Shown: positions 12,296 to 58,297, counted from the first letter of the stretch. The stretch is 64,000 nt of DNA from a bacterium (GCA_024226235.1 JAAELW010000079.1:366-64365), one strand, 5' to 3'. Notes: generated by a model from the sequence alone, not told the origin. Numbers and translations are program-made.

Positions 12296-12428
12296 AGGCG
12301 CAGAACCTGATTCGATGCCTGTCACCGAATAGATGATCGCCCCGTCGAGCACGGACGGAGCATGCGCAAGGCTCGCAACTAGTTCCCTGGGAATACCTGC
12401 CGGGTTCACCGGCCGCTGGAGGAATCAG

Positions 12429-20598: not shown

Positions 20599-20657
20599 CG
20601 TGCTGTCCTTGTCCTCGGTATCCGGGCCAGGCCGCTCCGCCAGACCTCTCGCGGGAT

Positions 20658-21458
20658 CTATTCGCCCTTGAAATCGGGCTTTCGCTTCTCCTTGAAGGCG
20701 CGTGGTCCTTCGCGGGCGTCCTTGGTGGCGAAGACGGGGCCGCCGATCTCGATCTCCTTCGCGAGCGCATCGGTCTCGCTGTAGCTCTCGTCGATCTCGC
20801 GCAGCATCTTCATGAGCGCACGGATCGAAACGGGGCCGTTGTCGCAGATCACCTCGGCGATCTTCTTCGCTTCAGCCAGAGCCTGGCCCGCAGGCACGAT
20901 CCGCCCCACCAGGCCATAGGCCAGCGCCTCCTCTGCAGTCACATGTCGCGCCGTGAGCAGGATCTCGGCCGCCAGCGTGTAGGGAATCTGTCGACGCAAT
21001 CGCACGCTGGACCCGCCGAGGGGAAAGAGCCCGCGCTTGGCCTCGGTGACACCGAAAATCGCGCCCTCACCCGCTACACGAATGTCGGTGCCCTGGAGGA
21101 TCTCGGTCCCTCCCGCCACCGCGAAACCTTCCACGGCTGCGATGATGGGCTTCATCGGTCGGTTGGCCCGGAGGAGCGCCTGCCAGTGGAGATCGGGCAC
21201 CTCGGCCATCAGCTCGTCGAGTTCTTCATCCCGTTCACCGCCTCCCCCCATGGCCTTGAGGTCAGCTCCTGCACAGAAGACATCGCCACGACCGGTGAGA
21301 ATCGCGACACGCAGGTCGGGGTCCTCGTCGAGCATTCGCCAGGCGCGGTACATGCCCGCCAGCATTCCGCCGCTCAGGGCATTCTTCGCCTCGGGACGGT
21401 TGAGGGTGACGACAAGCGTGTGGCCTTCGCGCTCGAGCAGACAATGGTCGGTGTTCAC
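20658..21458 (-). CDS. Enoyl-CoA hydratase/isomerase (crotonase) family
   Basis: LNRPEAKNAL, FCAGADL, AGGTEILQGTDIRVA, EGPRAFKEKRKP. Clear paralogue of 32817-33620. Confidence 0.9.
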   Translation of the reverse strand: MNTDHCLLEREGHTLVVTLNRPEAKNALSGGMLAGMYRAWRMLDEDPDLRVAILTGRGDVFCAGADLKAMGGGGERDEELDELMAEVPDLHWQALLRANRPMKPIIAAVEGFAVAGGTEILQGTDIRVAGEGAIFGVTEAKRGLFPLGGSSVRLRRQIPYTLAAEILLTARHVTAEEALAYGLVGRIVPAGQALAEAKKIAEVICDNGPVSIRALMKMLREIDESYSETDALAKEIEIGGPVFATKDAREGPRAFKEKRKPDFKGE

Positions 21459-21497: not shown

Positions 21498-22661
21498 CTA
21501 CTCCGGCAACCCGAGGATGGTGACGGCGCAGACCGAGCCGGGGCCGCCCAGGTTGTGGGCCATTCCGAGGCGCGCGTTCTCCACCTGGGCCCCGTCGGCG
21601 CGGCCCTGGAGTTGTTTGGTGATCTCGCAGAGCATCCGACAACCCGTGGCTCCGATCGGATGCCCGAAGCACTTGAGACCACCACTGGCGTTGATCGCAA
21701 CCTTGCCGCCAACGTCCGCGTAACCCTCACGCACGAACTTCGCTGCCTCACCTCGCTCGCAGAATCCGAGATCCTGGATGTTCAGGAGTTCCGTGATGGT
21801 GAAGCAGTCGTGCACTTCGGCCAGATCGATCTCCTCAGCGGGGTTCTTGATCCCCGCCTCCGCATACGCCTGTCTCGCCGCATTCTCGGTGGCTGGGAAG
21901 CCCAGCCAGTCGTAGGCTTCCCGATACATCGGCAGGAAGACGTCCATGCTCAGCACGCTTGCCTTGGTCAGCGCATGATCATGCTTGTGCTTGCTCTTCT
22001 TGGCGATCTCGGGCCGGGTGATCACGACTGCGGCGGCCCCATCGGACATCGCGCAGGCATCGAAACGGCCCAGCGGCCAGGCGATCATCGGCGCGTTGAG
22101 TGCCGTCTCCAGGGTGATCTCCCGCTGGAAGTGGGCCTTGGAATGCTGGGCTCCGTTCTTGTGGTTCTTGACCGCCACTCGGGCGAGATCCTCCCGATCC
22201 CAGCCGTGCTCGTGAAAGGACCGCGTGGCTGCCAGCGCGAACATGCCCGGAGCACTGGAGCCGCGAAACACCGGATGCCCCATGTCCACGGGCAGACCGG
22301 ATCCACCGACGTCCATCAGCTTCTCCACTCCGCAGGCCAGCACCACATCATAGGCTCCGGAAGCGACCGCAAAGCAGGCGTTGCGGAAGGCGTCCATGCC
22401 CGAGGCACAGAAGTTCTCCACGCGCGTGGTCGGCCTTCCAAATAGCTTGAGGGGCTCGGCAGCAACACTGCCACTCAGGCCGGTGAAGTCATAGAGGTTG
22501 CCCACCCAGGTCGCTTCGATGTCATCCGGGGTGATCCCGGCATCGTCCATCGCCTCATACGCGGCCTCCACGATGAGATCTTCGGCGTCCTTCTCCCATT
22601 GCTCACCGAATTTCGTGCAACCAACGCCGATGATGGCTGTCTTGTCCTTCATGCTTCCCAT
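21498..22661 (-). CDS. SCPx/archaeal-type thiolase with intact catalytic residues
   Basis: Nucleophile block VENFCASGMDAF and C-terminal NASGGLKCFGHPIGATG are both present. Confidence 0.85.
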   Translation of the reverse strand: MGSMKDKTAIIGVGCTKFGEQWEKDAEDLIVEAAYEAMDDAGITPDDIEATWVGNLYDFTGLSGSVAAEPLKLFGRPTTRVENFCASGMDAFRNACFAVASGAYDVVLACGVEKLMDVGGSGLPVDMGHPVFRGSSAPGMFALAATRSFHEHGWDREDLARVAVKNHKNGAQHSKAHFQREITLETALNAPMIAWPLGRFDACAMSDGAAAVVITRPEIAKKSKHKHDHALTKASVLSMDVFLPMYREAYDWLGFPATENAARQAYAEAGIKNPAEEIDLAEVHDCFTITELLNIQDLGFCERGEAAKFVREGYADVGGKVAINASGGLKCFGHPIGATGCRMLCEITKQLQGRADGAQVENARLGMAHNLGGPGSVCAVTILGLPE

Positions 22662-22705
22662 GGGATTCCCCTCTCACTTCTTCGCGTTGTCCGTATCGCT
22701 CGCTG

Positions 22706-24121
22706 CTAGGAAGCCGCCTGCGGTACGGGCCGGCATTTCCAGTAGTAGTTGTGAAAGCTCGATGCCTCGTGCAATCGGCGGAAGACCACCTCTGCGGACA
22801 TGCCGATCTCGACCTCTTCCGGGTCACCGTCGGTCATCGAGAGGAAGAGGCGGCCTCCTCCCTCCAGATCCAGCACCAGGCGGGGAACGGGCACGTTCAC
22901 GTACTTGCCATCCTCGAGGTGATCGAGTGTGAAGGTGAAGACCGTGCCGGTCTTGGCCAGCTTGATCTCCTCGATCTCGTCCTTGGTCCCACACTCGCCG
23001 CACACGCGGGGAATCGGGTACAGCACAGCACCGCAACTAGTGCAGCGACCCGCGTGGAAGTTCAGCACCACCTTGATGTCCCGCCAGTAGGTAACGGCTG
23101 AACCACGTGGGTCGACGTCGGTAACCTTCATGAGCTTGCGGAAGCGGGCGTACGAAGTGTAGTTGGGCAGGTTCCTCTTCTGGAGGAGATGTCCGGTCAG
23201 TCCCTTCCGGCCAATGACGGGGGCGAAGTCATCGTCGAGGTCCACCAGGAAGGCATCAGCGCCGTCACCATGGTTCACCACCAGCAGCTTGTCGCCGGCC
23301 TTGGCCTGTTCCAGGGCCCCGGCGAGCATCATCAGTACCAGCGGAGATCCCGGATTGCCCACCGACATGAAGAGCATGTCCTGAAGCTTCGCAGCGTCCA
23401 GACCCAGACTTCGGGCTACCTTCCCCTGGCTTCCCGGATCGCCGGCCGTGATGATTGCGTTGGCGAGATCACCGGGAGCCAGATTCTCGTGGTCGAGAAG
23501 CGCTTTCCCCGCCTCGACGGCGCTCTTCAGATATCCGTATTTGGTCTCCACCTTGGGCTCGAAGGAGCGGATGTAGCGGTCTTCGCTGCGTCGCCAGAAC
23601 CCAAGCTGTTCGCCCGAGGTAGACTCGAAACCGCGCAGCGTTGCAGGCCCTCGTTTGGAGATCAGGATCGCACCGGCCCCATCCCCGAGTAGCTGTTCCC
23701 ACATCGATTCCGGTTCACCGAGACGGCAGTCCGCCGCGACCACCAGGATGCTCCCGGCCGAGCCGGAATCGACAGCATCGACCGCCGCGCGCAAAGCCGT
23801 ACTCGCCGCACGCAGTGAGCCGGTGAAGTCAGCGGTATTGATGTCCCTGCCCATGTCGAGGGCGGCGGCGATCACGCCCGCGCACTGTTTCTCGTCGTAG
23901 GGAGAAGTCGTAGTGGCAAAGTACAGGCCATCGATGGTCGTCGGGTCCAGACCCGTCAGGCAATCCGCACCCGCTGCCACCGCCATCGTGAGACTGTCCT
24001 CGTCGGCATTCGCAACGGACCGCTCGCCGGGAACTGCCGGAACTCCCCACGCACTCGCCATCTCCTGCCTGGAAAGCCTGAACAGGGGGATGTACGCACC
24101 GAATGATGCAATCTTGGCCAT
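22706..24121 (-). CDS. HMG-CoA-synthase-like (thiolase-fold) domain fused to a C-terminal DUF35 zinc-ribbon/OB-fold domain
   Basis: The N-terminus MAKIASFGAYIPLFRLSRQEM..DEDSLTMAV resembles archaeal HMGCS. The C-terminus has CTSCGAVLYPIPRVCGECG followed by an OB-like segment. ATG at 24121; the track start 24274 adds 51 implausible residues. Confidence 0.75.
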   Translation of the reverse strand: MAKIASFGAYIPLFRLSRQEMASAWGVPAVPGERSVANADEDSLTMAVAAGADCLTGLDPTTIDGLYFATTTSPYDEKQCAGVIAAALDMGRDINTADFTGSLRAASTALRAAVDAVDSGSAGSILVVAADCRLGEPESMWEQLLGDGAGAILISKRGPATLRGFESTSGEQLGFWRRSEDRYIRSFEPKVETKYGYLKSAVEAGKALLDHENLAPGDLANAIITAGDPGSQGKVARSLGLDAAKLQDMLFMSVGNPGSPLVLMMLAGALEQAKAGDKLLVVNHGDGADAFLVDLDDDFAPVIGRKGLTGHLLQKRNLPNYTSYARFRKLMKVTDVDPRGSAVTYWRDIKVVLNFHAGRCTSCGAVLYPIPRVCGECGTKDEIEEIKLAKTGTVFTFTLDHLEDGKYVNVPVPRLVLDLEGGGRLFLSMTDGDPEEVEIGMSAEVVFRRLHEASSFHNYYWKCRPVPQAAS

Positions 24122-24254
24122 GGTTTCTTCCTCTTCGAGTAATCGGCGATCGGTCCGTTCTCGTTCGTCCGAGGCAACGTGGAAACGGGACTGTATACGA
24201 TTCTGCCACGGATCCATCGGAGTGTGATCACCCGCTCCATCCGTTTCGAATTCG

Positions 24255-24296
24255 GGAAATGAGGGCCACTTCATTTCCTTGGGGGCAGGGGGGGGG
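24255..24296. repeat. 8-bp-stem hairpin followed by a G5-CA-G9 tract abutting the stop codon of the upstream ligase gene
   Basis: GGAAATGA (24255-62) pairs with TCATTTCC (24271-78). Then tt ggggg ca ggggggggg (24281-24296). The ligase stop (cta on +) is at 24298-24300. Confidence 0.85.
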
Positions 24297-25953: not shown

Positions 25954-27078
25954 TCATTCCTCGAGCAGCGTTGTCATTCGTTCCACGGTGTCGAAGAGTT
26001 CATCGATCACATCGGAGACCACCTTCCGAGCCGATCGCACCTGATTCATGCTGCCCACGACCTGGCCTGCAATCGTGACCGTCAGCTCCGCCGCAGTGGC
26101 ATTGCCCGCCAGTGCCGCTCTGAACGCGCGCTGCGTCGCGTCCGAGGTGGCCAGAAGCTGCAGCGGCATGGGCAACGTTCCAGGTGAGTTCGGCCCCTCC
26201 CACTCTTCGGTCCAGCCGCTGCGCAGCATACGTGCCGGCTTGCCGGTAATGCTGCGTGAGCGGACCGTGTCGCTCGAACTGGCCGCAAGCAGCCGATCGG
26301 TCACGAGAGGCTCCGCGTCGCTCTCTTTCGTCGTGAGCCAGATCGAGCCCATCCACACTCCCTGCGCACCGAGAGCCATCGCCGCCGCCATCTGGCGCCC
26401 GGAGCCGATCCCGCCGGCCGCGAGAACCGGCAGGGGCGCCACCGCATCGACCACCTCCGGCACCAACACCATCGTCGAAACCTCCCCCGTGTGGCCACCC
26501 GCCTCGGTCCCGGCGGCCACGATGATGTCGACACCCGCGGCCTTCTGATTCTTGGCCTGATCCGCGCGCCCTACCAGTGCTGCCACCTGCACCCCCGCTG
26601 CGTGCGCGCGCGCGATCACATCGGCCGGCGGCGGACCGAGAGCATTCGCGAGCAGCTTGATCGGATGGCTCATCGCGACGTCGACCAGCGCCCGGCCCAT
26701 GTTGTCCGACCAGCCGAGCAGGCTCTCGAAATGCGGCGCATCCTCGGATAGCGGGGGAACATCGTACCGGGCGAGCAACTCCTCCAGGAATCGCTTGTGC
26801 TCGTCGGGGATCAGCTTTTCGAGATCCAGCTTCTCGAGGCCACCCTGCTCCTTGCCCACGTAGGCGGCGGGGATCACGACATCGACTCCGTAGGGCTTCC
26901 CATTGACGTTCTCGTCGATCCACGTCAGTTCGCGCTCGAGCTCGTCGGGCGTGAAGACCAGCGCGCCGAGCACACCCATGCCCCCCGCATTCGTCACCGC
27001 GGCCACCACATCGCGACAGTGGCTGAAGGCGAAGATCGGATACTCGATTCCGAGCGATTCGCAGATGGAGACGCGCAT
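25954..27078 (-). CDS. Nitronate monooxygenase / FabK-like FMN oxidoreductase (NMO family)
   Basis: LGIEYPIFAFSHCRDVVAAVTNAGGMGVLG opening and a later AAGGIGSGRQMAAAMALGAQGVWMGS. ATG at 27078 (MRVSICE) with GGAG upstream. Confidence 0.8.
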   Translation of the reverse strand: MRVSICESLGIEYPIFAFSHCRDVVAAVTNAGGMGVLGALVFTPDELERELTWIDENVNGKPYGVDVVIPAAYVGKEQGGLEKLDLEKLIPDEHKRFLEELLARYDVPPLSEDAPHFESLLGWSDNMGRALVDVAMSHPIKLLANALGPPPADVIARAHAAGVQVAALVGRADQAKNQKAAGVDIIVAAGTEAGGHTGEVSTMVLVPEVVDAVAPLPVLAAGGIGSGRQMAAAMALGAQGVWMGSIWLTTKESDAEPLVTDRLLAASSSDTVRSRSITGKPARMLRSGWTEEWEGPNSPGTLPMPLQLLATSDATQRAFRAALAGNATAAELTVTIAGQVVGSMNQVRSARKVVSDVIDELFDTVERMTTLLEE

Positions 27079-27294
27079 TTTGGATGCTCCAATTCCAGGG
27101 CTTGATGGGATTCCGGCGTTGCCTGGATTCTTCTGTGGCATTCGACTCGAGTCAAGGAGGGTGGCCAGAGCCTTCTCTGCGGTGTCATCGAGAAGGAGGT
27201 AACGTGTGGCCACAAAAGGGCGTCATGGCGAGCGGCGCCGGGTCCGTTCCCATGGCTCTCAATCAGCCCTGAACAGACTCGAAAGGCCGTCGGT

Positions 27295-28659: not shown

Positions 28660-30297
28660 CTACCCCTCGACCAGACCTCGTCTGCTGGCCGCATACGCCT
28701 CGGCCCATTGATAGTCGGGCTTCCCGCTTGGCGCCCGTTGGATCTCGTCGACCACATGCAATTCCCGGGGAACCTTGTATCCGGCGATCTGCGTGCGGAT
28801 CTCCTTCTGTATTTCGTCGAGGGAGATCTTCCTGTCATTCCGCACTGCAACCACTGCAGTCACCTTGCGACCCCAACGTTCATCGGGTGTGCCCACCACC
28901 AGGCAATCGAGAATGTCGGGATGGGCCTTCAACGCCTGCTCGACCTCTTCCGGAAATATCTTCTCACCGCCGGAGTTGATGCAGTTGGAACCGCGACCGA
29001 ATACGGTAATCGACTCATCCTCTTCCAGCTGTGCAGCATCACCGGTCAACAACCAGGCCTTGCCTTCCACTTGAATGACCGTTCTGGCCGTCTTCTCGGG
29101 ATCGCCGTAGTAACCGACAGGGAGATAGCCTGAACGCGCGAAGATCCCCATCTCGCCGGGTTGGGCCCGACGTGCGGGTCGACCCTCTTCTTCGACGATG
29201 ACATCCATGAATTCGCTGCGTGCCACATTGCCGAGACCCGCCGAGGTCTTCCTCTGTCCGCTGTCCATTCCCATCTGGCCCGATTCCGAAGAACCGAAGG
29301 CATTGGTGATGACAACATTGGGGAAGATCCGCTTGAACTCCTGTTGCTTGGAATCAGAGAAGACCGCACCCCCCGAACCGACGCTCAATACACAGCCGAG
29401 CTCCCAGCGATCGGGATTCGCCTTCAAGGTATCCAACAAGGGAACCGCCATGGCATCACCGACGATGGATATGGTGTTGATCTTTTCCTTCTCGACGAGA
29501 TCCCATACCTGCTCACCCTTGATGGACCTGTTCGGGTTGAGCACGAGTTTGTTGCCCGCCAGCATCTGGATACACGCGTACCACCAGCAAGCTCCGTGCA
29601 TCAGAGGGGCCAAAGCAATGCCGGAAAGGGTCAGGCCCTCCGTGGCGCGCGAGACGATGTCCTCGGGCTCGTGACAGGGGCCATCCGGATGAAAATGGCC
29701 ACCACCACCCATCCCAGCGAAGAACACCGATTTGTGCGGCCACATCACACCCTTGGGCATGCCGGTCGTACCACCGGTATAGAGAATGAACAGGTCGTCA
29801 TCAGCGCGCTGTTCGAAATCCCTTTGCGAGCTTCCTCCGCGGATTGCGGCTTCAAATTCTGTCGCACCGATCCCCGCCAATGCGAAGTCACTGCCGTCTT
29901 CCACTGAGATGAACAGCTTCAGGTCCGGAACCGAACCCCGTACCGCCTCGATCGCGGGAATGAATTCCCGACCGTGGATGCATGCCACCAGATCGGCATC
30001 ATCGAAGATGTAGAGAAGCTCCGCATCCACGTAGCGGTAGTTGACGTTGATCGGTACCGCACGGACCTTGAAACAGGCCAACATGCCTTCGAGGTATTCG
30101 TTGCAGTTGTACATGTAGAGACCGACGTGATCCCCAGCCTCGACGCCATGGTCTTTCAGGAAGTGCGCCAGGCGATTGGCACGTTCTTCCAACTCGCCGA
30201 AAGTGGATCGTGCCTCACCGCAGACCAGAGCCTCGCGTTCGGGCATGGCGTCCGCGACGAGTTCGAAGAGGTCGGCAATGTTGAAGGTCCTCTTCAT
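28660..30297 (-). CDS. Acyl-CoA synthetase (FadD-like)
   Basis: ILYTGGTTGMPKGVMW, FGSSESG, and C-terminal APSGKPDY. Confidence 0.9.
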   Translation of the reverse strand: MKRTFNIADLFELVADAMPEREALVCGEARSTFGELEERANRLAHFLKDHGVEAGDHVGLYMYNCNEYLEGMLACFKVRAVPINVNYRYVDAELLYIFDDADLVACIHGREFIPAIEAVRGSVPDLKLFISVEDGSDFALAGIGATEFEAAIRGGSSQRDFEQRADDDLFILYTGGTTGMPKGVMWPHKSVFFAGMGGGGHFHPDGPCHEPEDIVSRATEGLTLSGIALAPLMHGACWWYACIQMLAGNKLVLNPNRSIKGEQVWDLVEKEKINTISIVGDAMAVPLLDTLKANPDRWELGCVLSVGSGGAVFSDSKQQEFKRIFPNVVITNAFGSSESGQMGMDSGQRKTSAGLGNVARSEFMDVIVEEEGRPARRAQPGEMGIFARSGYLPVGYYGDPEKTARTVIQVEGKAWLLTGDAAQLEEDESITVFGRGSNCINSGGEKIFPEEVEQALKAHPDILDCLVVGTPDERWGRKVTAVVAVRNDRKISLDEIQKEIRTQIAGYKVPRELHVVDEIQRAPSGKPDYQWAEAYAASRRGLVEG

Positions 30298-30303: not shown

Positions 30304-31437
30304 CTAGATCACCCCCGTATCGCGGAATGACGCGATCTCATCGCTGCTGAAGCCCGCCTCGCCGAGCACCTCGTCGCTATGCTCTCCGAGCTTGGCCGGG
30401 CCGGCGCCGAGGTCGGCTGTCGTACGCGAGAAGCGCGGTGCGGGACGTGGTTGCCGAACACCGTCATTCACGGGAAATGCTGCCCGCGCGGCGTTGTGCG
30501 GATGCTCGTGGGCTTCGGACATGGCGAGGACCGGGGCAAAGCAGGCGTCGCTGTTCTCGAATACAGCGCACCACTGGTCCCGGGTCTTCGTCTTGAAGAT
30601 TTCCGACAGTCGCTCCTTGAGGGCCGGCCACTGGCTTTGATCCATCTGCTCGGGCAGGTCGGCACCCGCGAGACCCAGCCGCTCGACGAGGCTGGCGTAG
30701 AACTGGGGTTCGATGGAGCCGATCGACACCCACTTGCCGTCGGCGGTCTCGTATACTTCGTAGAAGTGGGCACCCGAGTCGAGCATGTTCGTACCGCGCT
30801 CCTCGCTCCACCAGCCCGCCTGGTGCGCACCGTAGATACTGGTGAGCAGAAGCGAGACGCCGTCCACCATCGCAGCGTCGACGACCTGCCCCTGACCACT
30901 GCCCTTCGTCTCGAGCAGCGCGCACACGATGCCAAAGGCCATCAGCAATCCGCCTCCCCCGAAATCTCCGACCAGGTTGAGCGGAATGGCGGGCTTCTCT
31001 CCCTTCCGGCCAATCGCGTGAAGAGCACCCGTCAGGGACACGTAGTTGATGTCGTGGCCCGCCTCCTGGGCGAGAGGACCCTCCTGTCCCCATCCCGTCA
31101 TGCGGCCGTAGACGAGACGCGGGTTGCGTTCCAGGCAAGCGTCGGGCCCGATTCCGAGCCTTTCTGTCACGCCCGGGCGGAAGCCTTCGACGAAACCATC
31201 TGCTCCTTCGACGAGACGCATGACGACATCGACGCCCGCTGGCTTCTTCAAATCGACGCAGATACAGCGCTTTCCGCGATTGACGAGATCGGCAGGTCCC
31301 GTGGGAAAGGTGCCACCCCCGGGGCGCTCGATACGGATCACATCCGCCCCCATGTCACCAAGAACCATCGCGGCAAACGGCCCGGGGCCGAGGCCGGATA
31401 TCTCGATGATTCGTGTTCCTTGCAACGGACCCATCAC
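30304..31437 (-). CDS. Alpha-methylacyl-CoA racemase-like family III CoA-transferase-fold protein
   Basis: GPLQGTRIIEISGLGPGPFAAMVLGDMGADVIRIERPG opening plus AGHDINYVSLTGALH, the racemase-type HD(I)NY block. Its stop lies 6 nt upstream of the start (30297) of the downstream ligase gene. Confidence 0.8.
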   Translation of the reverse strand: MMGPLQGTRIIEISGLGPGPFAAMVLGDMGADVIRIERPGGGTFPTGPADLVNRGKRCICVDLKKPAGVDVVMRLVEGADGFVEGFRPGVTERLGIGPDACLERNPRLVYGRMTGWGQEGPLAQEAGHDINYVSLTGALHAIGRKGEKPAIPLNLVGDFGGGGLLMAFGIVCALLETKGSGQGQVVDAAMVDGVSLLLTSIYGAHQAGWWSEERGTNMLDSGAHFYEVYETADGKWVSIGSIEPQFYASLVERLGLAGADLPEQMDQSQWPALKERLSEIFKTKTRDQWCAVFENSDACFAPVLAMSEAHEHPHNAARAAFPVNDGVRQPRPAPRFSRTTADLGAGPAKLGEHSDEVLGEAGFSSDEIASFRDTGVI

Positions 31438-31533: not shown

Positions 31534-32760
31534 CTATCCGACGCGATGCGCCTCGAAAGTCTGCGCGCCAGCGTTCTCGTCGAGCAGATGGCGGGCAATC
31601 GTGAGAATCTGGATTTCGGTCGTTCCTCCGCCCAGCTCGAGAAGCTTGGCATCGCGTACGAGGCGTTCCACCTCGTACTCGGATATGTAGCCGTAGCCCC
31701 CAAGAATGTGGATCGCTTGCTGCGTGACTCGTGAGCCCACTTCTGCAACGTATAGCTTGGCCGCACAAGCATCGATGACCGAACCGGTCTGTTGCTTTGC
31801 ATAGACGATACGACGGCTGTTGCTGATATCCACGTACATGCGTGCGAGGCGTTCCTGTACGAGTTGATAGTTCGCGATCGGCTGACCGCCCTGTTCGCGG
31901 CTCTTCGCATACTCCAGCGCAATCTCGAATGCCTTCTCCGCGAGTGCATAACTCAGCGTCGCGATACCCAGGCGTTCTCCGGCCAGAGACTTGCGGACGT
32001 GATCTCGGTCCTCGACGCCACGGCCCAGGAGGTTGTCCGCGGGCACCTCCACGTCATCGAAGAAGACTTCACCGGTGGGGGAGGTCTTCATTCCCATTTT
32101 GTGGAACGGCTTGCTGGTGGTCACACCCTTCCACTCTCTTTCCACGATGTAGGCCTGAATCGCACCCGTGTCTGCATCCTTGGCATAGACGAGGAAGACA
32201 TCTCCATATGGGGCGTTGGTGATGAAGGTCTTGGAGCCATTCAGGATGTAGGAATCACCGGTCTTCTTTGCCGTCGTCCGCATCGAACCGAAGGCATCCG
32301 ATCCGGCGCCCGGCTCCGTCAAGCACCAACAACCGATCTTCTGCCCGCGCAGCACTGACGGCACGTATTTCTTGATCTGCTCGGGCGTACCATGCTTACG
32401 GATGTTGCCAGCACAGAGCCCGACACTCACGCCCCATGAGCTGCAAAGGCCCGGATTGACGCGAGCCATCTCGATGGTGAGCTGATTTCCCGCAAAGGTG
32501 ACGATCCGTTTCGTTTCCTCGTCATCGTCCGCGGGTTCGGCCGAGCTCTCGCCGTTCTTCACACCACCGGTGCTTTCGAGCCAATCCGCATCGGGAGCCA
32601 GGCCAAGGTCGGCGATCATCTGCTCGATGAAGGGAAAGGGCAGGATCTCCTGGTTCTCGAGCTGCTCGGTCAGAGGCGCGAGTTCGTTCTCCATGTACTT
32701 GCGGAACTGATCGCGGATGCCGCGTTCCATATCTGTGAACTGAACATCGTATACGGCCAT
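31534..32760 (-). CDS. Acyl-CoA dehydrogenase
   Basis: CLTEPGAGSD and C-terminal GGYGYISEYEVERLVRDAKLLELGGGTTEIQ. ATG at 32760 is preceded by GGGAGG. Confidence 0.9.
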   Translation of the reverse strand: MAVYDVQFTDMERGIRDQFRKYMENELAPLTEQLENQEILPFPFIEQMIADLGLAPDADWLESTGGVKNGESSAEPADDDEETKRIVTFAGNQLTIEMARVNPGLCSSWGVSVGLCAGNIRKHGTPEQIKKYVPSVLRGQKIGCWCLTEPGAGSDAFGSMRTTAKKTGDSYILNGSKTFITNAPYGDVFLVYAKDADTGAIQAYIVEREWKGVTTSKPFHKMGMKTSPTGEVFFDDVEVPADNLLGRGVEDRDHVRKSLAGERLGIATLSYALAEKAFEIALEYAKSREQGGQPIANYQLVQERLARMYVDISNSRRIVYAKQQTGSVIDACAAKLYVAEVGSRVTQQAIHILGGYGYISEYEVERLVRDAKLLELGGGTTEIQILTIARHLLDENAGAQTFEAHRVG

Positions 32761-32816
32761 GTCGACCTCCCAGGCCAGCATCGCCGAGCCGCCAACCGTC
32801 GTGCAGTGCGCTCGGC

Positions 32817-33620
32817 TCAGTGTCCCTTGAAGACGGGCTTGCGCTTTTCCAGGAAGGCGCGCGGTCCCTCGACTGCGTCCTTTGATTGCAAGACCGGCAT
32901 GCCGTAGCCGGTTTCGATCCCGAAGGCCTGCTCCTCGGGCAGCATGTCGGTCTCGCGCAATGTCGCGAGAATGGCCGTCACCGCGAGGGGGCCGTTCTCG
33001 GCAATGCGCTCGGCGATCTCCCGGGCCTTGGCAACGGCCTGGCCATCGGGCACGACGTGATTGATCAAGCCCAGCTCGAAGGCCCGTGCCGCGGTGAAGT
33101 CCTCGCCCACGAGAAGGATCTCGGCCGCGACCGCATAGGGGATCTGGCGGCGCAGCCGCACGACCGAGCCTGCCATCGGAAACAGCCCGCGCTGCACTTC
33201 GGTGACTCCGAACATGGCACTCTCGCCGGCGACGCGGATGTCGGTGCCCTGCAGGATCTCGGTCCCGCCCGCGCGCGCGAAACCCTCGGCGGCCAGAATC
33301 ACCGGTTTCTTCGGTCGGTGGGTCTTGAGCCAGGCACCCATGATCAGCGGCGGCTCACCCACGGCCCGCTTCATCCAATCGTTCTCGAGCTTTCCTGCCG
33401 TGAGCTTGGAGATCTCCGAGAGATCCATCCCAGCACAGAAGGTGTCCCCCTTCCCCGTGAGAATGGCGACGCGAAGATCATCATCGGCGTCCAGCTGGAG
33501 CCAGGCGTCATAGAGACGACACATGGCCTCGCAGTTGACCGCGTTCTTCTTCTCCGGGCGGTTCAAGGTGACGGTCAGGATCGCTCCGTCCTTCTCGACA
33601 AGCACAGCGGGGGCGGACAT
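32817..33620 (-). CDS. Enoyl-CoA hydratase/isomerase (crotonase) family
   Basis: LNRPEKKNAV, FCAGMDL, AGGTEILQGTDIRVA, EGPRAFLEKRKP. Confidence 0.9.
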   Translation of the reverse strand: MSAPAVLVEKDGAILTVTLNRPEKKNAVNCEAMCRLYDAWLQLDADDDLRVAILTGKGDTFCAGMDLSEISKLTAGKLENDWMKRAVGEPPLIMGAWLKTHRPKKPVILAAEGFARAGGTEILQGTDIRVAGESAMFGVTEVQRGLFPMAGSVVRLRRQIPYAVAAEILLVGEDFTAARAFELGLINHVVPDGQAVAKAREIAERIAENGPLAVTAILATLRETDMLPEEQAFGIETGYGMPVLQSKDAVEGPRAFLEKRKPVFKGH

Positions 33621-33671: not shown

Positions 33672-34826
33672 TCAACTGAAGCTCGGGTTCGGATCCGAAC
33701 TCACGATCCACATCGCGAAGTAATTCGAGGCTCCACCGTAGGCGTGACCGAGGGCAACACGTGCGCCATCCACCTGGTAGTCGCCAGCGGTACCGCGGAC
33801 CTGGTTTGCAGCTTCGAGGCAGCGAACCATCCCCGACGCACCGATCGCGTTGGAAGAGAGAACACCGCCCGACATGTTCACCGGGAAATCACCACCGAGC
33901 TCGGTCGCACCCGAGTCGGTCATCTTCCAGCCGTCGCCCTCGTCGGCGATCAGGTGGCCTTCGAGCCACATCGGTTCGAACCAGCTGAAGGGGACATAGA
34001 GCTCGGCACAATCGATCTGGCGACGCGGATCGGTGATACCGGCCTTCTTGTACAAGGCCTTCGCACACTCCACACCCGCTGCCGGCTTCACCGGATCGCG
34101 GCCGGGGAATACCGTGAATTCGGTCCGCTTCGCATGAGCGAGCACCCAGGCGGGAGGTCGCGGCGTTCGCTTCGCACCGGCAACCGTCGTAATCACCATG
34201 GCCGCCGCACCGTCGGAGGAAGGGCACGCCTCGAAGAAGTGGAGGGGATCCCAGAGCATCGGGCTCTCCTTCACCTTCTCGATTGTAATTCCCTCCATCT
34301 GCAGATGTGCGTACGGATTCTTGAGCGCGTTCAAGCGATCCTTGACCGCGACCTTCCAGCCAATGTGCGGAGGCGCGCCACTCCTCTTGATGTACTCGCG
34401 AATCCATGGAGCGAAAGAACCGCCGGCACCGGCTCCTCCGCTACGGCCGCCACTCAGCGCCCACATGAAGTCGCCCTCGCTCTGCTTCTCGTACGCCAGG
34501 GTGAGAACCGTCTCATACATGCCGCTCTCGACAAGCGTCGCCGCGCTGATGGCGGTGGATGCGCCCACCGAGCCCGCAGTGTGGACGCGGTGAATGGGCT
34601 TGCCCACCGCATTCAGAGCATCCGCGAGCGATAGCTCGGGCATCATCACGCCCTCGAGGGCATCCGGAGCCTTGCCGATCACGACCGCATCGATGTCCGC
34701 AAAAGTCAGTTCCGCATCCTCGAGCGCGCGCAATGCAGCCTCGCGGACGAGACCATCCAGCGAGAGCGGGAGGCAACGGTCGTACTTGGTCTGCCCGAGT
34801 CCGACGACTCCACAGCGCTCGGCCAT
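33672..34826 (-). CDS. Thiolase-fold protein lacking the canonical nucleophile (Ltp-type, candidate retro-aldolase subunit)
   Basis: SCPx-like fold, but the nucleophile block reads VHTAGSVGASTAI (no Cys). The C-terminal block reads NMSGGVLSSNAIGASG (no GHP). Confidence 0.75.
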   Translation of the reverse strand: MAERCGVVGLGQTKYDRCLPLSLDGLVREAALRALEDAELTFADIDAVVIGKAPDALEGVMMPELSLADALNAVGKPIHRVHTAGSVGASTAISAATLVESGMYETVLTLAYEKQSEGDFMWALSGGRSGGAGAGGSFAPWIREYIKRSGAPPHIGWKVAVKDRLNALKNPYAHLQMEGITIEKVKESPMLWDPLHFFEACPSSDGAAAMVITTVAGAKRTPRPPAWVLAHAKRTEFTVFPGRDPVKPAAGVECAKALYKKAGITDPRRQIDCAELYVPFSWFEPMWLEGHLIADEGDGWKMTDSGATELGGDFPVNMSGGVLSSNAIGASGMVRCLEAANQVRGTAGDYQVDGARVALGHAYGGASNYFAMWIVSSDPNPSFS

Positions 34827-35887
34827 CAGGACTCTCCTTCCAGAATGCAGAGCAGGTTCTGCTGCAGTGCGGGTCCACTGGCCGCATGCCCGAGACCGCG
34901 TCCCGCTTCACCCGCGCGGATTCGGCGCGCCAGTTCGATGACTCGTGTCAGACCGGTCGCCATCACCGGATGACCACAGAGCGGCCCGCCGGAGGGGTTG
35001 ATCCTGGTGTGGTCGCCGAGGTCGAGTGCCTGGCGCAGAACGATCTCCTCGGGGCTGTAGCGAACGCAGAGCTCCGCCATATCGAGAGAGCCCGGGTCGA
35101 GACCCAGATGGCGCGCTGCAATACGCGACGATGGGGAGTCCGTCAGGTCGCGCAGGCCCAGGTGGTGGGATTCGATGCGATGGTCGATGCCGCGGATCCA
35201 AACCGGCTTCTCGCAAAGCTCGCGCGCACGGTGACCACGCGCGATGAGCATGGCCGATGCGCCATCGGAGATGGGCGGCAGGTCGTGTTTGCGGAGCGGC
35301 GAGGCATAGTACGGCTCTTCCAGCAGGTTTTCGGCGGGGATGTCCTTGGCGACCTGCGCGTATGGATTCGAAAGGGCATCGCGCCGGCTTCGCGAGACGA
35401 CCTCCGCGAAATCGCGCTCGCTGGCCTTCCCGGCCTGGAGCAAAGCGCTGGCCTGAAGTCCGGCCACGGAAACCGGATCGAGGCCGATCGGCGCATGAAC
35501 ATAGGGATCGGCCTGGAGAGGGAAGATCTCCCGCGGAGTGCCCGGCGACGATTTTCCGGAACCCGCGACCAGCGCGAGATCGATGTCCCCCATCTGGAGG
35601 CGCACGAACGCCTCGAAGAGCGCCCAGGCCCCATCCATCTCGACATGGGACTCATAGACCGGCGGCCAGGCACCAAAGCCGTCCACATTCGCGATGAAGC
35701 AGAATGGAGAGCCCGAAAGGTAGTCACTGCTGCCGGCAATCGTGAAATCGATCTGGTGCCGGTCGAGCCCGGTTTCCTCCAGAATCTGGTTCACGAGCCC
35801 CATCAACATCGACGGCTCGGTATCGGGGTAGCTTCGAACACAGGGCGTCTGCGCATAGGCGACGATCGCAATCTCTTCGGCCAACAC
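34826..35887 (-). CDS. Thiolase-fold protein lacking the N-terminal nucleophile Cys (partner subunit)
   Basis: The nucleophile region reads HVEMDGAWALFEA (no Cys). The C-terminal NPSGGPLCGHPVMATG is retained. Its stop overlaps the next gene's start by 1 nt (TGATG). Confidence 0.75.
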   Translation of the reverse strand: MLAEEIAIVAYAQTPCVRSYPDTEPSMLMGLVNQILEETGLDRHQIDFTIAGSSDYLSGSPFCFIANVDGFGAWPPVYESHVEMDGAWALFEAFVRLQMGDIDLALVAGSGKSSPGTPREIFPLQADPYVHAPIGLDPVSVAGLQASALLQAGKASERDFAEVVSRSRRDALSNPYAQVAKDIPAENLLEEPYYASPLRKHDLPPISDGASAMLIARGHRARELCEKPVWIRGIDHRIESHHLGLRDLTDSPSSRIAARHLGLDPGSLDMAELCVRYSPEEIVLRQALDLGDHTRINPSGGPLCGHPVMATGLTRVIELARRIRAGEAGRGLGHAASGPALQQNLLCILEGES

Positions 35888-36885
35888 TAGATCTGCTCCG
35901 GAAATTCTTCACGGGGAACGTCGGGCTCACCGGTGGGCTCCCAGCGCTCGATCACGTTCCCAGTGGTGAAGATCATCCAGCTGTTGTCCACGTTGTCGAC
36001 GTTGCGCTCGGCGACGGGCTTGAAAATCGCACGCAGGCGCATTCCCTCTCGGAACTCGTCCACGGGAATGTTGTAGATGTTCTGCATGGTGAGGGGTTGG
36101 TCCGAGCCGTCGAGGAAGATCGATGCGCTGACATAGGGCTCCGTCTCCGTCTGGCCCTTGTACTGGATCGGCGTGATCACCGTAAAGGAGGTGGCCGTGC
36201 CCGTGGGAGCGAGTTCCACGTCGTCAGCCTCGGTCATCAGCACGCGCGCCATTGGGTCGTAGCCCTTGCCCGGAATGGAGACACTGCCACTCACGGGGCT
36301 ACGCTGCCCAATGAACTTCCCATCGAGCAGCCCCTGCGCATAGCGAGCGCGGGACGGGTAGAGGTTCTCGTCGAACGTGAGCGAAATCAGGTGCGTGCTG
36401 ATTTCTACCTCACCCTCACCCGGCTCGATGGCCATGTCCAGCGCATCGGCTTCGGGCACGAAATAGACATCGCTGATTGCACCGGTGCGTTCCTCGCGGA
36501 ACTGCGCCTTCACCCGCATGCCGTTCGACATGGCCTCCGGGCCCGAAGCCTTGACAGCGTGGGTCATCGCGGTGTCGGCCCCGTCCAGCTTCACCTGCGC
36601 AAACGCAAAGGGTTCCCGGAAAGGATGTTTGCGCGAAGGCTCGGCAATCCATGTCCAGAACTCGACACACCCCATGGGCCCGACTTCGACGAAGTCCGGG
36701 CTCAGGGTCTCGCCCGTTTCCGGGTCGAACTCAAGCGGCGGACAGAGGACGCGACTCCCACATCGGATACCCAGGATGCGACCATCACGGAGTGCGGTCA
36801 GGAAGGGTCCGATCACGGGGCCGAGGGTCCGGGTGTAGGGATACTCGAGGGTAAAGGAGGTAGGAAATTCCGACATGGCCACCAT
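35887..36885 (-). CDS. Tandem double DUF35/OB-fold protein (degenerate zinc ribbons)
   Basis: 332 aa. The first half has RCGSRVLCPP..EFDPETGE plus an OB-like segment. The second half repeats the OB-like pattern without Cys. There is a 1-nt stop/start overlap with the downstream thiolase-fold gene. Confidence 0.65.
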   Translation of the reverse strand: MVAMSEFPTSFTLEYPYTRTLGPVIGPFLTALRDGRILGIRCGSRVLCPPLEFDPETGETLSPDFVEVGPMGCVEFWTWIAEPSRKHPFREPFAFAQVKLDGADTAMTHAVKASGPEAMSNGMRVKAQFREERTGAISDVYFVPEADALDMAIEPGEGEVEISTHLISLTFDENLYPSRARYAQGLLDGKFIGQRSPVSGSVSIPGKGYDPMARVLMTEADDVELAPTGTATSFTVITPIQYKGQTETEPYVSASIFLDGSDQPLTMQNIYNIPVDEFREGMRLRAIFKPVAERNVDNVDNSWMIFTTGNVIERWEPTGEPDVPREEFPEQI

Positions 36886-36942: not shown

Positions 36943-38523
36943 TCAGGGAGCCAGGTATTGGGCGGCCAGCTCCGCTGCGTTGAGTCCGCCGGCCATCGCG
37001 TTGCTGACACCTCCCCCCGGACGGACCCAATGGCCACACAGAAAGATGTTCTCGACGGGTGATCGCTGCGGGATGGAATCCTGCACCTGGTTTGGCGAGT
37101 AGCGCCAACCCACGTAGGCACCGCCGCGATTCTCGGTAAACCGCTCGATCGTGACGGGTGTCGCCAGCTCCAGCACCTCGGCGTGCTTCTCGAGATCGGG
37201 GATACCGAGAGCCCGCTCCATCTTCTCGATCAGCTGCGGGAGCAGGCGATCCTTCAGGGCCTTGTAGGCGCGACCGCGGTGCCGATCCGTACCGAGCGCT
37301 TCTTCGTAGATCTCCGGTGACGCGAGAAGCATCGTAGCCACGATGCTCTTGCCCTTGGGGCAACAGGTCGGATCGATATTGCTGTAGATCGTCGCCGCCG
37401 CCCAGGGAAGATCCGAGTAGTCGCCGCTGACGGCGCCCTTCACGAAGAATGGTGAGTCGCCGCCAGCCTTCCAACTGCGAGAGATCTCGCAGTCGGTGAT
37501 GCCCATGGCGGGCAGGTCCAGGTCGAGACCCGCGAAGAGAGTCAGAGCGGAGATGCTCGGGCGCCGCTGGTTGATGCCTCGTACATACTCGTCGGGCAGG
37601 GTCCCCTGCGGACACAGTCTGCTCGCAAATGCAGTCACATCCCCCCCGTGAATCACAGTACGCGCCCGCGCCGAGATCGAGCGGCCTGCTCTCCGTCGCG
37701 AGACGATGCCCGAGGCACGGCCCCCGTCGAAGCTGATCTCACTGACACCCTGGTCGAGAAGCAGCGTGCCACCTCGCTCCTCGAAGAGCTCGGCGAGCAC
37801 CTGGGTCATCCGCCCCGAGCCACCCTTCGGATAGTAGGCCTGGCCACCGCCGACGCGAAACACCAGATCGCACATGATGGCAAGACTGGCATCGAGTTCG
37901 TTCGAACTCGTGCCCAGGAAACCGCTCGGGATGGCGAGCATCAGCTCGATCAGATCGGGATCCGAAACGTGTTCCCTCAACACCTCCGGAGCCTTCCTTC
38001 CGCCGAGGCCTGAATAAAGCTCCACTTCTTCGGCCAGCTTGCTGGATTCCTCGACAACCAGGTCCTCGCCGGCGTCTTGAGCCGTCAACAGGGCCTCGGC
38101 CATGGAACCGTACTTCCCATAGAAGCTGCGTATGCCCTCCTGCTCGTCGGGAAAGTTCTTGATCAGCATCTCGACGTGTCCGTCCAGAGCCCAGGGAAGC
38201 GTGACATCCGTGCCGCGCTCCTCGTCCACCCTGCGCCCGAAATCGTCGAGATGAATGAACTCGACGCGCTCCTGTGCGCCGATCCGCTCGAGAAGCCGGT
38301 AGGTCATCCCCCCCGGAGCACAGCCATTGATCACGTGGTTCGACGCCTCGAAGCGGTAGCCTTTGCGCTCGAAGTTCACGGTGCATCCACCAGGTACGCC
38401 GTGTTTCTCGAGCATCAGCACGCGATGCCCAGAAGCCGCCAGTGAGTTTCCCGCCATCAGGCCGGCCAATCCCGCACCGATCACGATCGCGTCGAACTCG
38501 CCGAGGTCTTCGATCTCAGTCAT
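36943..38523 (-). CDS. CrtI/phytoene-desaturase-family (RetSat-like) NAD(P)/FAD-dependent oxidoreductase
   Basis: FDAIVIGAGLAGLMAGNSLAASGHRVLMLEKHGVPGG, with C-terminal ..FLCGHWVRPGGGV. ATG at 38523 is preceded by GAGGAG. Confidence 0.8.
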   Translation of the reverse strand: MTEIEDLGEFDAIVIGAGLAGLMAGNSLAASGHRVLMLEKHGVPGGCTVNFERKGYRFEASNHVINGCAPGGMTYRLLERIGAQERVEFIHLDDFGRRVDEERGTDVTLPWALDGHVEMLIKNFPDEQEGIRSFYGKYGSMAEALLTAQDAGEDLVVEESSKLAEEVELYSGLGGRKAPEVLREHVSDPDLIELMLAIPSGFLGTSSNELDASLAIMCDLVFRVGGGQAYYPKGGSGRMTQVLAELFEERGGTLLLDQGVSEISFDGGRASGIVSRRRAGRSISARARTVIHGGDVTAFASRLCPQGTLPDEYVRGINQRRPSISALTLFAGLDLDLPAMGITDCEISRSWKAGGDSPFFVKGAVSGDYSDLPWAAATIYSNIDPTCCPKGKSIVATMLLASPEIYEEALGTDRHRGRAYKALKDRLLPQLIEKMERALGIPDLEKHAEVLELATPVTIERFTENRGGAYVGWRYSPNQVQDSIPQRSPVENIFLCGHWVRPGGGVSNAMAGGLNAAELAAQYLAP

Positions 38524-38710
38524 GCAAGGCTCCTCTTGGTGCCGATCCGGCGTCAGGGCACAGGGCTCTCTCCGCACGGAATCTGGAATCAGGCCCCCGA
38601 CGATAGACCGGTTCGGGATCTCCGGACAAGTGGACCAATATCCACCGGGTCCGGGGACCCCGCTGCAGGCTGTTTCGTGACCGGGAGCCCGAACCTGGAG
38701 ATATCCCCTG

Positions 38711-39259
38711 CTAGTCGATGAACGCCCACAGAAGCCGCCGGCTCTTCGCGTCGAGGCCGTCCGGGTTCGGCACCAGGTAGAGATCTCCAGCGACATCCTT
38801 GATCAGGAGTCCGTCCCCTGACATCCCCCGGGGCCACTCATCCCGAAGCGTCTGGAAGCTCCGCATGCCCTGGGCGGTCCGGACGCGGAATCTGCGGATC
38901 TCGATCTCCTCTTCCACTTCGAGCACGGCCTCGACGACGAACACGAAGCCCGCCTCGAGAAGCGCCGTCCCGAGCGCCCGCTGCGCCGTGTACGGGAGAT
39001 CGCTGAGATCGCGCACGAGCGCCACCTCGTCTTCGTCGCGATCGCGGAGCGAGACGAAGCGAGTGGGTTTCGACCAGGGGAAGCAGCGCACCGGGCGCAC
39101 CGAGCATGTGCGATCGGCAGTGCGTGCCCACAGCTGACCGTCGGAGCCGCGCCAGAGTTCGACGCCCGGCATCGGCCGCCGCGGAGCCTGATGGGTAACG
39201 GCCCGTCCCCGCCGCGCGCGTGTCAGGTCCTTCTTCTCTCTCTTCTGGATATCGGTCAT
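38711..39259 (-). CDS. DUF1854 family protein
   Basis: Pattern CFPWSKPTRFVSLRD..DEVALVRDLSDL......LLIKDVAGDLYLVPNPDGLDAKSRRLLWAFID matches my recollection of DUF1854. It starts 10 nt after the ABC gene stop. Confidence 0.7.
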   Translation of the reverse strand: MTDIQKREKKDLTRARRGRAVTHQAPRRPMPGVELWRGSDGQLWARTADRTCSVRPVRCFPWSKPTRFVSLRDRDEDEVALVRDLSDLPYTAQRALGTALLEAGFVFVVEAVLEVEEEIEIRRFRVRTAQGMRSFQTLRDEWPRGMSGDGLLIKDVAGDLYLVPNPDGLDAKSRRLLWAFID

Positions 39260-54564: not shown

Positions 54565-54587
54565 CGTCTGTTGTCTCCACGCTCTCG

Positions 54588-55769: not shown

Positions 55770-55812
55770 GGTCTTTCTCCGTGGCTGCCAGTCATTCGAG
55801 GGTGAGGCACGC

Positions 55813-58191: not shown

Positions 58192-58255
58192 CCAGGCTAC
58201 CGACGTGTCTCGCGGGTCATTCCCTCTCCTCTCGGACTCCAGCCTTCGGGCGATT

Positions 58256-58297
58256 GAATCGGACGAGAGTCTGAAGTATCGTACGCTTGTCCGATTC
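58256..58297. promoter_or_regulatory. 9-bp inverted repeat pair in the divergent TetR / CoA-transferase control region
   Basis: GAATCGGAC (58256-64) and GTCCGATTC (58289-97), separated by 24 nt. A second inverted repeat, CAGCAG-n9-CTGCTG, lies just downstream. Confidence 0.35.

Follow-up and report, generated by a model that had tools for sequence, protein, structure and literature searches.

Three genes on the minus strand of a 64,000-nucleotide stretch of bacterial DNA (GCA_024226235.1, JAAELW010000079.1:366-64365; this whole stretch is called the window below) raise the question of what is made from two thiolase-fold proteins that lack the catalytic nucleophile and a third protein that consists of two DUF35 units. 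As judged from family models, gene order, and conserved motifs, the trio is a copy of the conserved Rv3521–Ltp4–Ltp3 module in a Gram-negative host of the type represented by metagenome-assembled genomes (MAGs) of Myxococcota/'Deltaproteobacteria'. A preliminary description had placed three linked genes between positions 33,672 and 36,885, and open reading frames (ORFs) exist there exactly, all on the minus strand:

35887..36885, minus strand: ORF1, 332 amino acids; tandem double-DUF35 protein of the Rv3521 type, proposed scaffold.
34826..35887, minus strand: ORF2, 353 amino acids; Ltp4-type thiolase-fold protein, proposed non-canonical partner subunit.
33672..34826, minus strand: ORF3, 384 amino acids; Ltp3-type thiolase-fold protein, proposed catalytic retro-aldolase subunit.

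The trio sits within a long codirectional gene run, and both junctions are 1-nucleotide stop/start overlaps, as had been described; the sequence TGATG that was given for both is correct for only one of them. At 34826 the junction reads ...TCC TGATG GCC, the ATG of ORF3 overlapping the TGA of ORF2 by 1 nucleotide, whereas at 35887 it reads ...ATC TAGTG TTG, with the TAG of ORF1 and the GTG start codon of ORF2 sharing one G. The codon bias is of the coding type, with a G + C content of 0.75–0.79 at third codon positions (GC3) versus 0.45–0.50 at second positions (GC2). Pseudogenes or chance ORFs are ruled out by this bias and by the conservation of the proteins.

The identity of the locus follows from its families and their order. 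ORF2 passes the NCBIfam model NF005924/PRK07937 'lipid-transfer protein' (458.2 bits versus a cutoff of 419; residues 4–352 of 353), which is the Ltp4 model, and ORF3 passes the Ltp3 model NF006180/PRK08313 (570.4 bits versus a cutoff of 514; residues 2–379 of 384), so that the earlier assignment of both proteins to the Cys-less Ltp type stands. ORF1 has the features of the Rv3521 type, namely two OB_ChsH2_C units in one chain of approximately 310–335 amino acids, encoded directly upstream of ltp4 and ltp3. In Mycobacterium intermedium, a gene matching TIGR03559 'F420_Rv3520c' (518 bits) on the opposite strand precedes the OB gene, which is followed by genes matching PRK07937 (659 bits) and PRK08313 (758 bits). 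Because this trio lies directly after the Rv3520c-type gene, the M. intermedium locus is Rv3521–ltp4–ltp3; Rv3521 has been placed in the Rv3520c/Rv3521/ltp4/ltp3 neighborhood, which is part of the mycobacterial cholesterol regulon (PMC9782250, PMC1995591). By the same sequence features, the window trio belongs to the Rv3521–ltp4–ltp3 locus type. The preliminary description had cited ltp3 and ltp4 without recognizing the trio as that locus, and its remark that the arrangement had not been seen described has to be withdrawn, since OB→Ltp4→Ltp3 is the standard order in M. intermedium, other actinobacteria, Acidimicrobiia, and Myxococcota MAGs.

In a species-representative genome collection, at least 593 stretches encode an ORF1 relative (593 of the 600 matches listed); 80 of these loci were retrieved and compared by tblastn with the window proteins, together with two plasmid records (82 in total). 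A large protein database holds 1753 relatives of ORF1, the best 120 of which are 64–92% identical. The order ORF1→ORF2→ORF3 is kept in virtually every retrieved locus with enough DNA, including those of Nocardia, Amycolatopsis, Saccharopolyspora, Streptomyces, Tsukamurella, Microbispora, and M. intermedium, as well as marine and sponge-associated Acidimicrobiia and Myxococcota/'Deltaproteobacteria' MAGs; with the order kept across essentially all 80 related loci, the trio is not a chance association. ORF2 and ORF3 overlap by 1, 4, or 8 nucleotides in 52 of 69 loci, and ORF1 and ORF2 overlap in 31 of 73, being mostly 0–20 nucleotides apart in the others. Compared with cultured actinobacteria, ORF3 is the best conserved protein (mostly 57–64% identity), followed by ORF2 (44–52%) and ORF1 (36–42%). 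Three apparent natural fusions of trio proteins (P0146, 613 amino acids; P0149, 492; P0180, 694) were rejected as Arg-rich, frame-shifted read-through gene calls.

Of the listed relatives, a MAG labeled 'Deltaproteobacteria bacterium' stands nearest to the window (92%), followed by one of Myxococcota from the eastern tropical North Pacific (87%). A Gram-negative host fits the window, because genes for RND (resistance-nodulation-division) efflux, a TonB receptor, and PEP-CTERM proteins lie within it. Among the next-closest relatives (61–63% for ORF1; L007, L008, and L009) are sponge-associated or marine Acidimicrobiia, represented by an Acidimicrobiales MAG, the Sva0996 group, and Candidatus Poriferisocius. 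The clade of the window groups with these marine Acidimicrobiia and not with the classical actinobacteria, a sequence relationship that hints at lateral transfer between marine lineages.

Both ORF2 and ORF3 have the SCP2-thiolase fold according to Pfam and to HMMER alignments to solved thiolases, and the absence of the nucleophile Cys from both, noticed in the preliminary description, is confirmed by the alignments to PDB entries. In ORF3, Gly85 (HTAGSVGAS) aligns with the nucleophile Cys of the SCP2 thiolase 6hsj (NNNCSTGS); in ORF2, Glu83 or Met84 (HVEMDGAWA) aligns with that of 6esq and 7yvy. A shifted nucleophile was considered and rejected: no Cys was found in or beside either loop, and the loops are invariant or nearly so in 72–75 relatives. 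As an internal control, a canonical SCP2-type thiolase encoded at 21498..22661 of the window keeps NFCASG, HDCF, and GHP. The best PDB match of both ORF2 and ORF3 is 4yzo, which indicates that the PDB holds no solved orthologue of Ltp3 or Ltp4. The protein of 4yzo ('putative acyl-CoA acyltransferase') is also devoid of the nucleophile Cys (aligned loop NTSGSGGSA) and, on this alignment, may be another uncharacterized Cys-less thiolase-fold enzyme.

ORF3 holds the Ltp3-family blocks HTAGSVG, YVPFSW, and SGGVLSSN(P/A)IGASG. The first (H82-T-A-G85-S-V-G) is invariant in 72 of 72 relatives, and Y277-V-P-F-S-W and N326 are present in 71, the remaining one having a gap there; residue 327 is Ala in the window versus Pro in 68 of the 72. 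The equivalent of the HDCF loop is YVPF, and the C-terminal block reads SS-NAIGASG with Asn326 at the position of the GHP His. The motifs of SCP2-type thiolases are therefore absent, with G85, P279, and N326 at the three catalytic positions. The proven catalytic bases of the two steroid side-chain aldolases are Tyr294 in TcLtp2 and Tyr302 in CtSal, and the known proton donors are Tyr344, the acid of TcLtp2, and Cys304 of CtSal (PMC12329534, PMC11321319). In the alignment, Tyr277 of ORF3 coincides with the H of HDCF and hence with Tyr294 of TcLtp2 (YDHF) and Tyr302 of CtSal (YDCY), and Asn326 coincides with Tyr344 of TcLtp2 and Gln352 of CtSal (PMC12329534). ORF3 thus has a Tyr at the catalytic-base position of Ltp2 and Sal.

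ORF2 is built differently. At the former nucleophile site it carries the family-invariant loop S-H-V-E-M-D (H81, E83, and D85 in all 75 relatives, V82 in 74, M84 in 73), and approximately 60 of its positions are conserved in at least 95% of the relatives. The equivalent of the HDCF loop is CVRY (ELCVRYSP) versus HAPF in the majority (E-L-H-A-P-F-x-H; His in 59 of 75), and the C-terminal block LCGHPVMATG keeps the GHP His306 versus GNP in the majority (Asn in 59 of 75). Both majority motifs of Ltp4 are missing from ORF2, but the positions vary and the motifs are therefore not defining. The earlier statement that one thiolase-fold protein keeps CGHP and the other has lost it is correct as a reading of the two sequences (GHP in ORF2, Asn326 in ORF3) but not as a conserved property; because most members of the ORF2 family have Asn there, the retained CGHP carries little weight. 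At the positions of the SCP2-type thiolase motifs, ORF2 has E83/M84, R276, and H306, so just the His is kept. The place of the catalytic Tyr is taken by Cys274, a position occupied by H, C, M, Q, T, or Y in the relatives; at the known proton-donor positions stand His306 and Arg276, both variable, and the donor of Ltp2 or Sal is found at neither. The N-terminal half of ORF2 gives no match to Pfam Thiolase_N.

ORF1 matches Pfam PF01796 (OB_ChsH2_C) in two stretches with 59.9 bits, and its halves, which share 28% identity, each pass the model separately (30.2 and 32.8 bits; cutoff 27.1). They correspond to two units:

36436..36885, minus strand: ORF1 unit 1 (approximately residues 1–150), OB fold with a degenerate zinc ribbon of which C42 and C48 remain.
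35890..36387, minus strand: ORF1 unit 2 (residues 167–332), OB fold without a zinc ribbon.

A sequence search of the PDB with ORF1 returned no match at E ≤ 1. The AlphaFold2 (AF2) model (predicted local distance difference test score, pLDDT, 80; predicted template modeling score, pTM, 0.57) consists of two beta-rich domains, and when it is compared with the PDB by Foldseek, DUF35 subunits of thiolase-type complexes fill all of the first 21 places, among them 6esq_E, 6ok1_D, and 9myr_B (top hits), PhlB, MucABC, and BbsA. The Pfam halves, the model, and Foldseek agree with the earlier view of the first gene as two tandem OB-fold DUF35 units with degenerate or absent ribbons; the opposite case named there, a product devoid of OB/DUF35 folds, is at odds with the two DUF35-like beta domains found by modeling and Foldseek. 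The zinc-ribbon model zf-ChsH2 (PF12172) gives 12.5 bits for the first half, below the cutoff of 23.2, and no match for the second, compared with 46.4 bits for a stand-alone DUF35 protein encoded at 61285..61728. Neither unit has a Cys4 (or Cys3His) rubredoxin-like ribbon ahead of its OB fold, and unit 2 reads RSPVSG...GYDPMA where relatives have RCPxCG...ACPxC/D. Among 82 members of the ORF1 family, the ribbon region of unit 1 contains no Cys in 62, one in 13, and two in 7, and a full ribbon in none; unit 2 has 3–4 Cys in 54 and no Cys in 26, the latter group including the clade of the window, Nocardia, and M. intermedium. Because unit 1 never has a full ribbon and unit 2 is Cys-free in 26 of 82, zinc loss is, by these Cys counts, recurrent in the family and not special to this window. 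Rv3521 itself has been labeled as hypothetical, with the comment that it "potentially could bind to DNA" (PMC9782250); the searchable literature yielded no work presenting it as the DUF35 partner of Ltp3/Ltp4, although an earlier remark may exist.

Next to the trio, related loci usually carry genes for a crotonase, two synthetases (one of them FadD19-like), and an NMO-type flavoprotein. The following genes accompany it in the window:

36943..38796, minus strand: phytoene-desaturase/carotenoid-isomerase-family (CrtI-family) flavoprotein, directly upstream of ORF1 (57-nucleotide gap).
32817..33620, minus strand: EchA19-family crotonase (PRK07799, 350.6 bits, above 316; EchA19 equivalog model, 340 bits, below the cutoff of 400).
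31534..32781, minus strand: acyl-CoA dehydrogenase (Pfam Acyl-CoA_dh_N/M/1), found beside the trio in the related locus L004 (87% identity).
30304..31437, minus strand: family III CoA-transferase-fold protein (Pfam CoA_transf_3, 289 bits).
28660..30297, minus strand: FadD19-like acyl-CoA synthetase (NCBIfam PRK07798, 665 bits, above 543).
25954..27213, minus strand: NMO/FabK-like flavoprotein (Pfam NMO, 180 bits), a frequent companion of the module.

The crotonase is 51–58% identical to the trio-adjoining crotonase of actinobacterial loci, the synthetase is 40–50% identical to the trio-flanking synthetase in 52 of the 82 loci, and homologues of the NMO-type protein stand beside the trio in many actinobacterial loci (46–58% identity) and in L004 (75%). 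The CoA-transferase-fold protein exceeds the cutoff of no NCBIfam model; it is of the alpha-methylacyl-CoA racemase or CoA-transferase type, and a racemase role is conceivable. The CrtI-family flavoprotein, a type that was not found beside the trio in the related loci examined, is called with 617 residues, approximately 100 of which precede the flavin adenine dinucleotide (FAD) motif, so its true start is probably further in. An ATP-binding cassette (ABC) transporter and a DUF1854 gene also lie upstream in the same run.

Taken together, these comparisons make it probable, though far from certain, that ORF3 is a retro-aldolase acting on a tertiary 3-hydroxyacyl-CoA, with ORF2 as its partner and ORF1 as the scaffold; a retro-aldol role fed by the adjoining crotonase, as proposed in the preliminary description, was likewise judged the most reasonable reading by analogy with known aldolases. 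The synthetase would form the CoA thioester of a branched carboxylic acid, from which dehydrogenase and crotonase would yield a 3-hydroxyacyl-CoA with an extra alkyl group on C3, as in a C24-alkyl sterol side chain; it is likely that the crotonase at 32817..33620 supplies this substrate to the trio. Because such a compound is a tertiary alcohol, oxidation and thiolysis are blocked, and ORF3 would instead cut C2–C3 by a retro-aldol reaction to give a ketone and propionyl- or acetyl-CoA. Tyr277 would serve as the base, like its counterparts in TcLtp2 and CtSal, and Asn326 might help to hold the enolate. Ltp2 solves the same tertiary-alcohol problem at steroid C17, and TcLtp2 and CtSal each have a DUF35 domain bound (PMC12329534, PMC11321319). 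ORF2, with its own invariant loop and otherwise variable 'active-site' loops, would be the partner thiolase-fold subunit, and ORF1 would offer one DUF35 clamp to each thiolase-fold protein. The assembly could be 1:1:1 on an ORF2/ORF3 heterodimer, which is favored because the site of ORF2 is degenerate and variable, or 2:2:2 with the tandem DUF35 protein bridging ORF2 and ORF3 homodimers, which is favored by geometry because the DUF35 chains of Ltp2 sit at opposite dimer edges (PMC11321319). Ltp3 and Ltp4 have been called aldol-lyases that are required only for C24-branched sterols, on genetic evidence from Rhodococcus and mycobacteria (PMC6273163, PMC6593523), and phytosterol co-induces ltp3, ltp4, echA19, and fadD19 approximately 70–97-fold (PMC6593523). 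We offer a bolder version tentatively and with some doubt: Ltp3, Ltp4, and the tandem-DUF35 protein might form one obligate complex here and in Mycobacterium tuberculosis, in which only Ltp3 is catalytic through a third, so far undescribed active-site solution of thiolase-fold retro-aldolases (the YVPF Tyr as base together with Asn, a second Tyr or a Cys being absent), Ltp4 is a pseudo-enzyme whose H-V-E-M-D loop shapes or completes the site of its partner, the two non-identical DUF35 units each recognize one subunit, and zinc is dispensable.

Beyond the run that contains the trio, the gene content gives the window the look of an island for the catabolism of lipids, isoprenoids, or sterols. 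Positions 59059..61728 (plus strand) hold an igr-like operon whose genes overlap in the ATGA manner, its DUF35 protein being encoded by a separate gene and not as the C-terminus of ChsH2:

59059..59634 and approximately 59631..60056, plus strand: MaoC/hot-dog pair of the igr-like set.
60053..61276, plus strand: Ltp2-like aldolase (6ok1_A, E = 5.6e-81) that keeps YDHF and the second catalytic Tyr ('EAYIHG').
61285..61728, plus strand: stand-alone DUF35 protein, 147 amino acids, with an intact zinc ribbon (zf-ChsH2, 46.4 bits).

A second DUF35 system lies at 21498..24274 (minus strand), together with 18925..21458. It includes a 522-amino acid protein with an HMG-CoA-synthase/PhlA-like domain (6esq_I, E = 2.5e-26), in which Leu aligns with the catalytic Cys, and a fused C-terminal DUF35 domain (6esq_E, E = 8e-14); beside it are the canonical SCP2-type thiolase mentioned above, a crotonase, and an AMP-ligase. 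Judged by sequence, this system resembles the archaeal thiolase/HMGCS/DUF35 or PhlABC arrangement in a bacterial, fused form. At 53443..58341 (minus strand), two adjoining acyl-CoA dehydrogenases resemble the heteromeric PimC/PimD pair (one, called with 497 residues, probably starts too early, as its Pfam match begins at residue 130) and are followed by an 842-amino acid protein with two family III CoA-transferase domains in tandem. A thiamine pyrophosphate (TPP)-dependent enzyme at 8778..10526 (minus strand; 2-hydroxyacyl-CoA lyase model, 218 bits, below cutoff) and a PhyH-family dioxygenase approximately 2 kb away at 12333..13286 (plus strand) could form an alpha-oxidation pair for 3-methyl-branched acids. 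Further genes encode a WS/DGAT wax-ester synthase at the window edge (48..1214, plus strand), a Baeyer–Villiger-type flavin monooxygenase (61769..63235, plus strand), and an RND efflux pump with a membrane-fusion protein and a TetR regulator (48443..52710, minus strand).

Several observations weigh against the retro-aldolase complex as outlined. The proposed mechanism of ORF3 is incomplete because the known proton donors are absent, Asn326 standing in place of Tyr344 of Ltp2 and Pro279 in place of Cys304 of Sal. That the three proteins would make up one heteromeric enzyme is a proposal drawn from gene linkage, translational coupling, and analogy. With the DUF35 chains at opposite edges of the dimer in solved structures (PMC11321319), one ORF1 chain with its linker of approximately 25 residues may fail to span a single dimer, and the pTM of 0.57 leaves the relative placement of the ORF1 units undefined. 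For a sterol as the substrate, it is further unfavorable that the 64 kb showed no genes for degradation of the steroid ring and that the PhyH dioxygenase and the 2-hydroxyacyl-CoA-lyase-like TPP enzyme (below cutoff, as stated) are present; NCBIfam searches of the window for steroid-specific regulators and enzymes gave only sub-threshold KstR, PimC, and PimD-like matches. These points speak for the same kind of enzyme acting on isoprenoid-derived 3-hydroxy-3-methyl acyl-CoAs (from phytol, pristane, or carotenoid acids) with release of methyl ketones and acetyl- or propionyl-CoA, and the CrtI-family flavoprotein, the Baeyer–Villiger-type monooxygenase, and the wax-ester synthase point the same way, as does the occurrence of the module in many genera that are not known as sterol degraders, such as Streptomyces and Microbispora. 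We consider this a possibility to be taken seriously, if still the less probable one. The Ltp2-like aldolase, the MaoC pair, and the DUF35 protein of the window are typical of steroid side-chain removal, and this igr-like set fits sterol side-chain catabolism, as does the PimC/PimD-like dehydrogenase pair. In addition, close relatives occur in sponge-associated MAGs, and sponges are rich in 24-alkyl sterols. The only genetic data on the family concern C24-branched sterols (PMC6273163, PMC6593523).

A different division of labor appears unlikely. Ltp3-type and Ltp4-type proteins might form two homodimeric enzymes, each with its own activity (e.g., for different branch lengths, epimers, or successive steps), which the tandem DUF35 protein would tie into a 2:2:2 assembly like PhlABC or the archaeal thiolase/HMG-CoA synthase/DUF35 complex. 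For such a role, ORF2 has no Tyr base, the position being variable, its equivalents of HDCF and GHP vary as well, its N-terminal half fails Pfam Thiolase_N, and it evolves faster than ORF3. What can be said in favor is that in 6esq, 5m3k, and 9vbt, which rank with the top structural hits of ORF1, DUF35 forms a bridge between thiolase-fold dimers of two different kinds (PMC12329534), that the ORF1 units are loosely placed relative to each other, and that the invariant H-V-E-M-D loop and the approximately 60 highly conserved positions of ORF2 go beyond the need of a pure spacer. Least probable is that the trio performs no retro-aldol chemistry and acts as a decarboxylase with a thiolase fold or, without catalysis, as a complex that binds lipids or acyl-CoA. 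Both ORF2 and ORF3 lack the acyl-enzyme Cys, and ORF2 has a carboxylate, Glu83, at or beside the nucleophile position. Cys-to-Gln KSQ/CLF proteins offer a precedent, as does the malonyl-CoA decarboxylase activity reported for the trypanosomal SLP (TbSLP; PMC12329534); in vitro activity of Ltp3 or Ltp4 was not found in the searchable literature, which nevertheless treats both as aldol-lyases (PMC6593523). The invariant Tyr of ORF3 at the aldolase base position and the adjoining crotonase, which would make 3-hydroxyacyl-CoA, also argue against a non-aldolase function.

The retro-aldolase reading, with ORF3 as the catalytic subunit, concerns an enzyme of some consequence. The arrangement of the genes was annotated long ago and occurs very often, and it is the encoded enzyme that remains uncharacterized: judging by the PDB and the searchable literature, the product of this ordinary and widespread trio has never been reconstituted or solved, and neither a structure of the trio nor a paper on it was found there. 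The trio is part of the cholesterol regulon of M. tuberculosis, and industrial mycobacteria and Rhodococcus cannot remove phytosterol side chains without it. From the comparisons come testable assignments, with Ltp3 as the catalytic protein (Tyr277, Asn326), Ltp4 as its partner (HVEMD), and the OB protein as a two-headed clamp. The module is not confined to Actinomycetota but is also present in marine bacteria of the Myxococcota type and in sponge-associated ones, a wider spread that matters for the question of which organisms break down alkylated sterols or isoprenoid acids in the sea.

Among known systems, the SCP2-type (SCPx) thiolases have the same overall fold as the two thiolase-fold proteins of the trio and the same blocks CPSSDGA and NxSGG, whereas the latter lack the Cys residues of the nucleophile site and of HDCF and, in the case of ORF3, also the His of GHP. 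In the complexes of the PhlABC and archaeal thiolase/HMG-CoA synthase/DUF35 type, which likewise count as top structural hits of ORF1, DUF35 subunits join two different thiolase-superfamily proteins; however, these complexes pair a Cys-bearing thiolase with a KAS III/HMGCS-type protein, have single DUF35 chains, and carry out Claisen or Friedel–Crafts chemistry via an acyl-enzyme, which is impossible for the trio because the nucleophile Cys is lacking. TcLtp2–ChsH2 (6ok1) and CtSal–Shy (9myr) have in common with the trio an SCP2-thiolase fold that lacks the nucleophile Cys, the pairing with DUF35, the supply of substrate by an adjacent hydratase, and a Tyr as the first residue of the HDCF-equivalent loop (YVPF in ORF3, YDHF in Ltp2, YDCY in Sal). 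They differ in being homodimers with two identical single DUF35 domains on the hydratase, in contrast to two different thiolase-fold proteins plus a free-standing tandem DUF35 protein; their solved DUF35 domains bind zinc, whereas ORF1 has no complete ribbon, and their proton donors are replaced in ORF3 (Asn for Tyr344, Pro for Cys304). The closest counterpart is the actinobacterial Rv3521/Ltp4 (Rv3522)/Ltp3 (Rv3523) locus, which belongs with fadD19 and echA19 to the KstR regulon and shares with the window the three families, their order and coupled junctions, the NCBIfam models, the Cys-less HTAGSVG and HVEMD loops, and the FadD19-like, EchA19-family, and NMO-like companions. The window differs from this locus in its Gram-negative host, in the CVRY/GHP motifs of ORF2 (HAPF/GNP in most relatives), in the loss of both ribbons (54 of 82 relatives keep 3–4 Cys in unit 2), and in the position of its crotonase and dehydrogenase downstream of the trio in one operon-like run.

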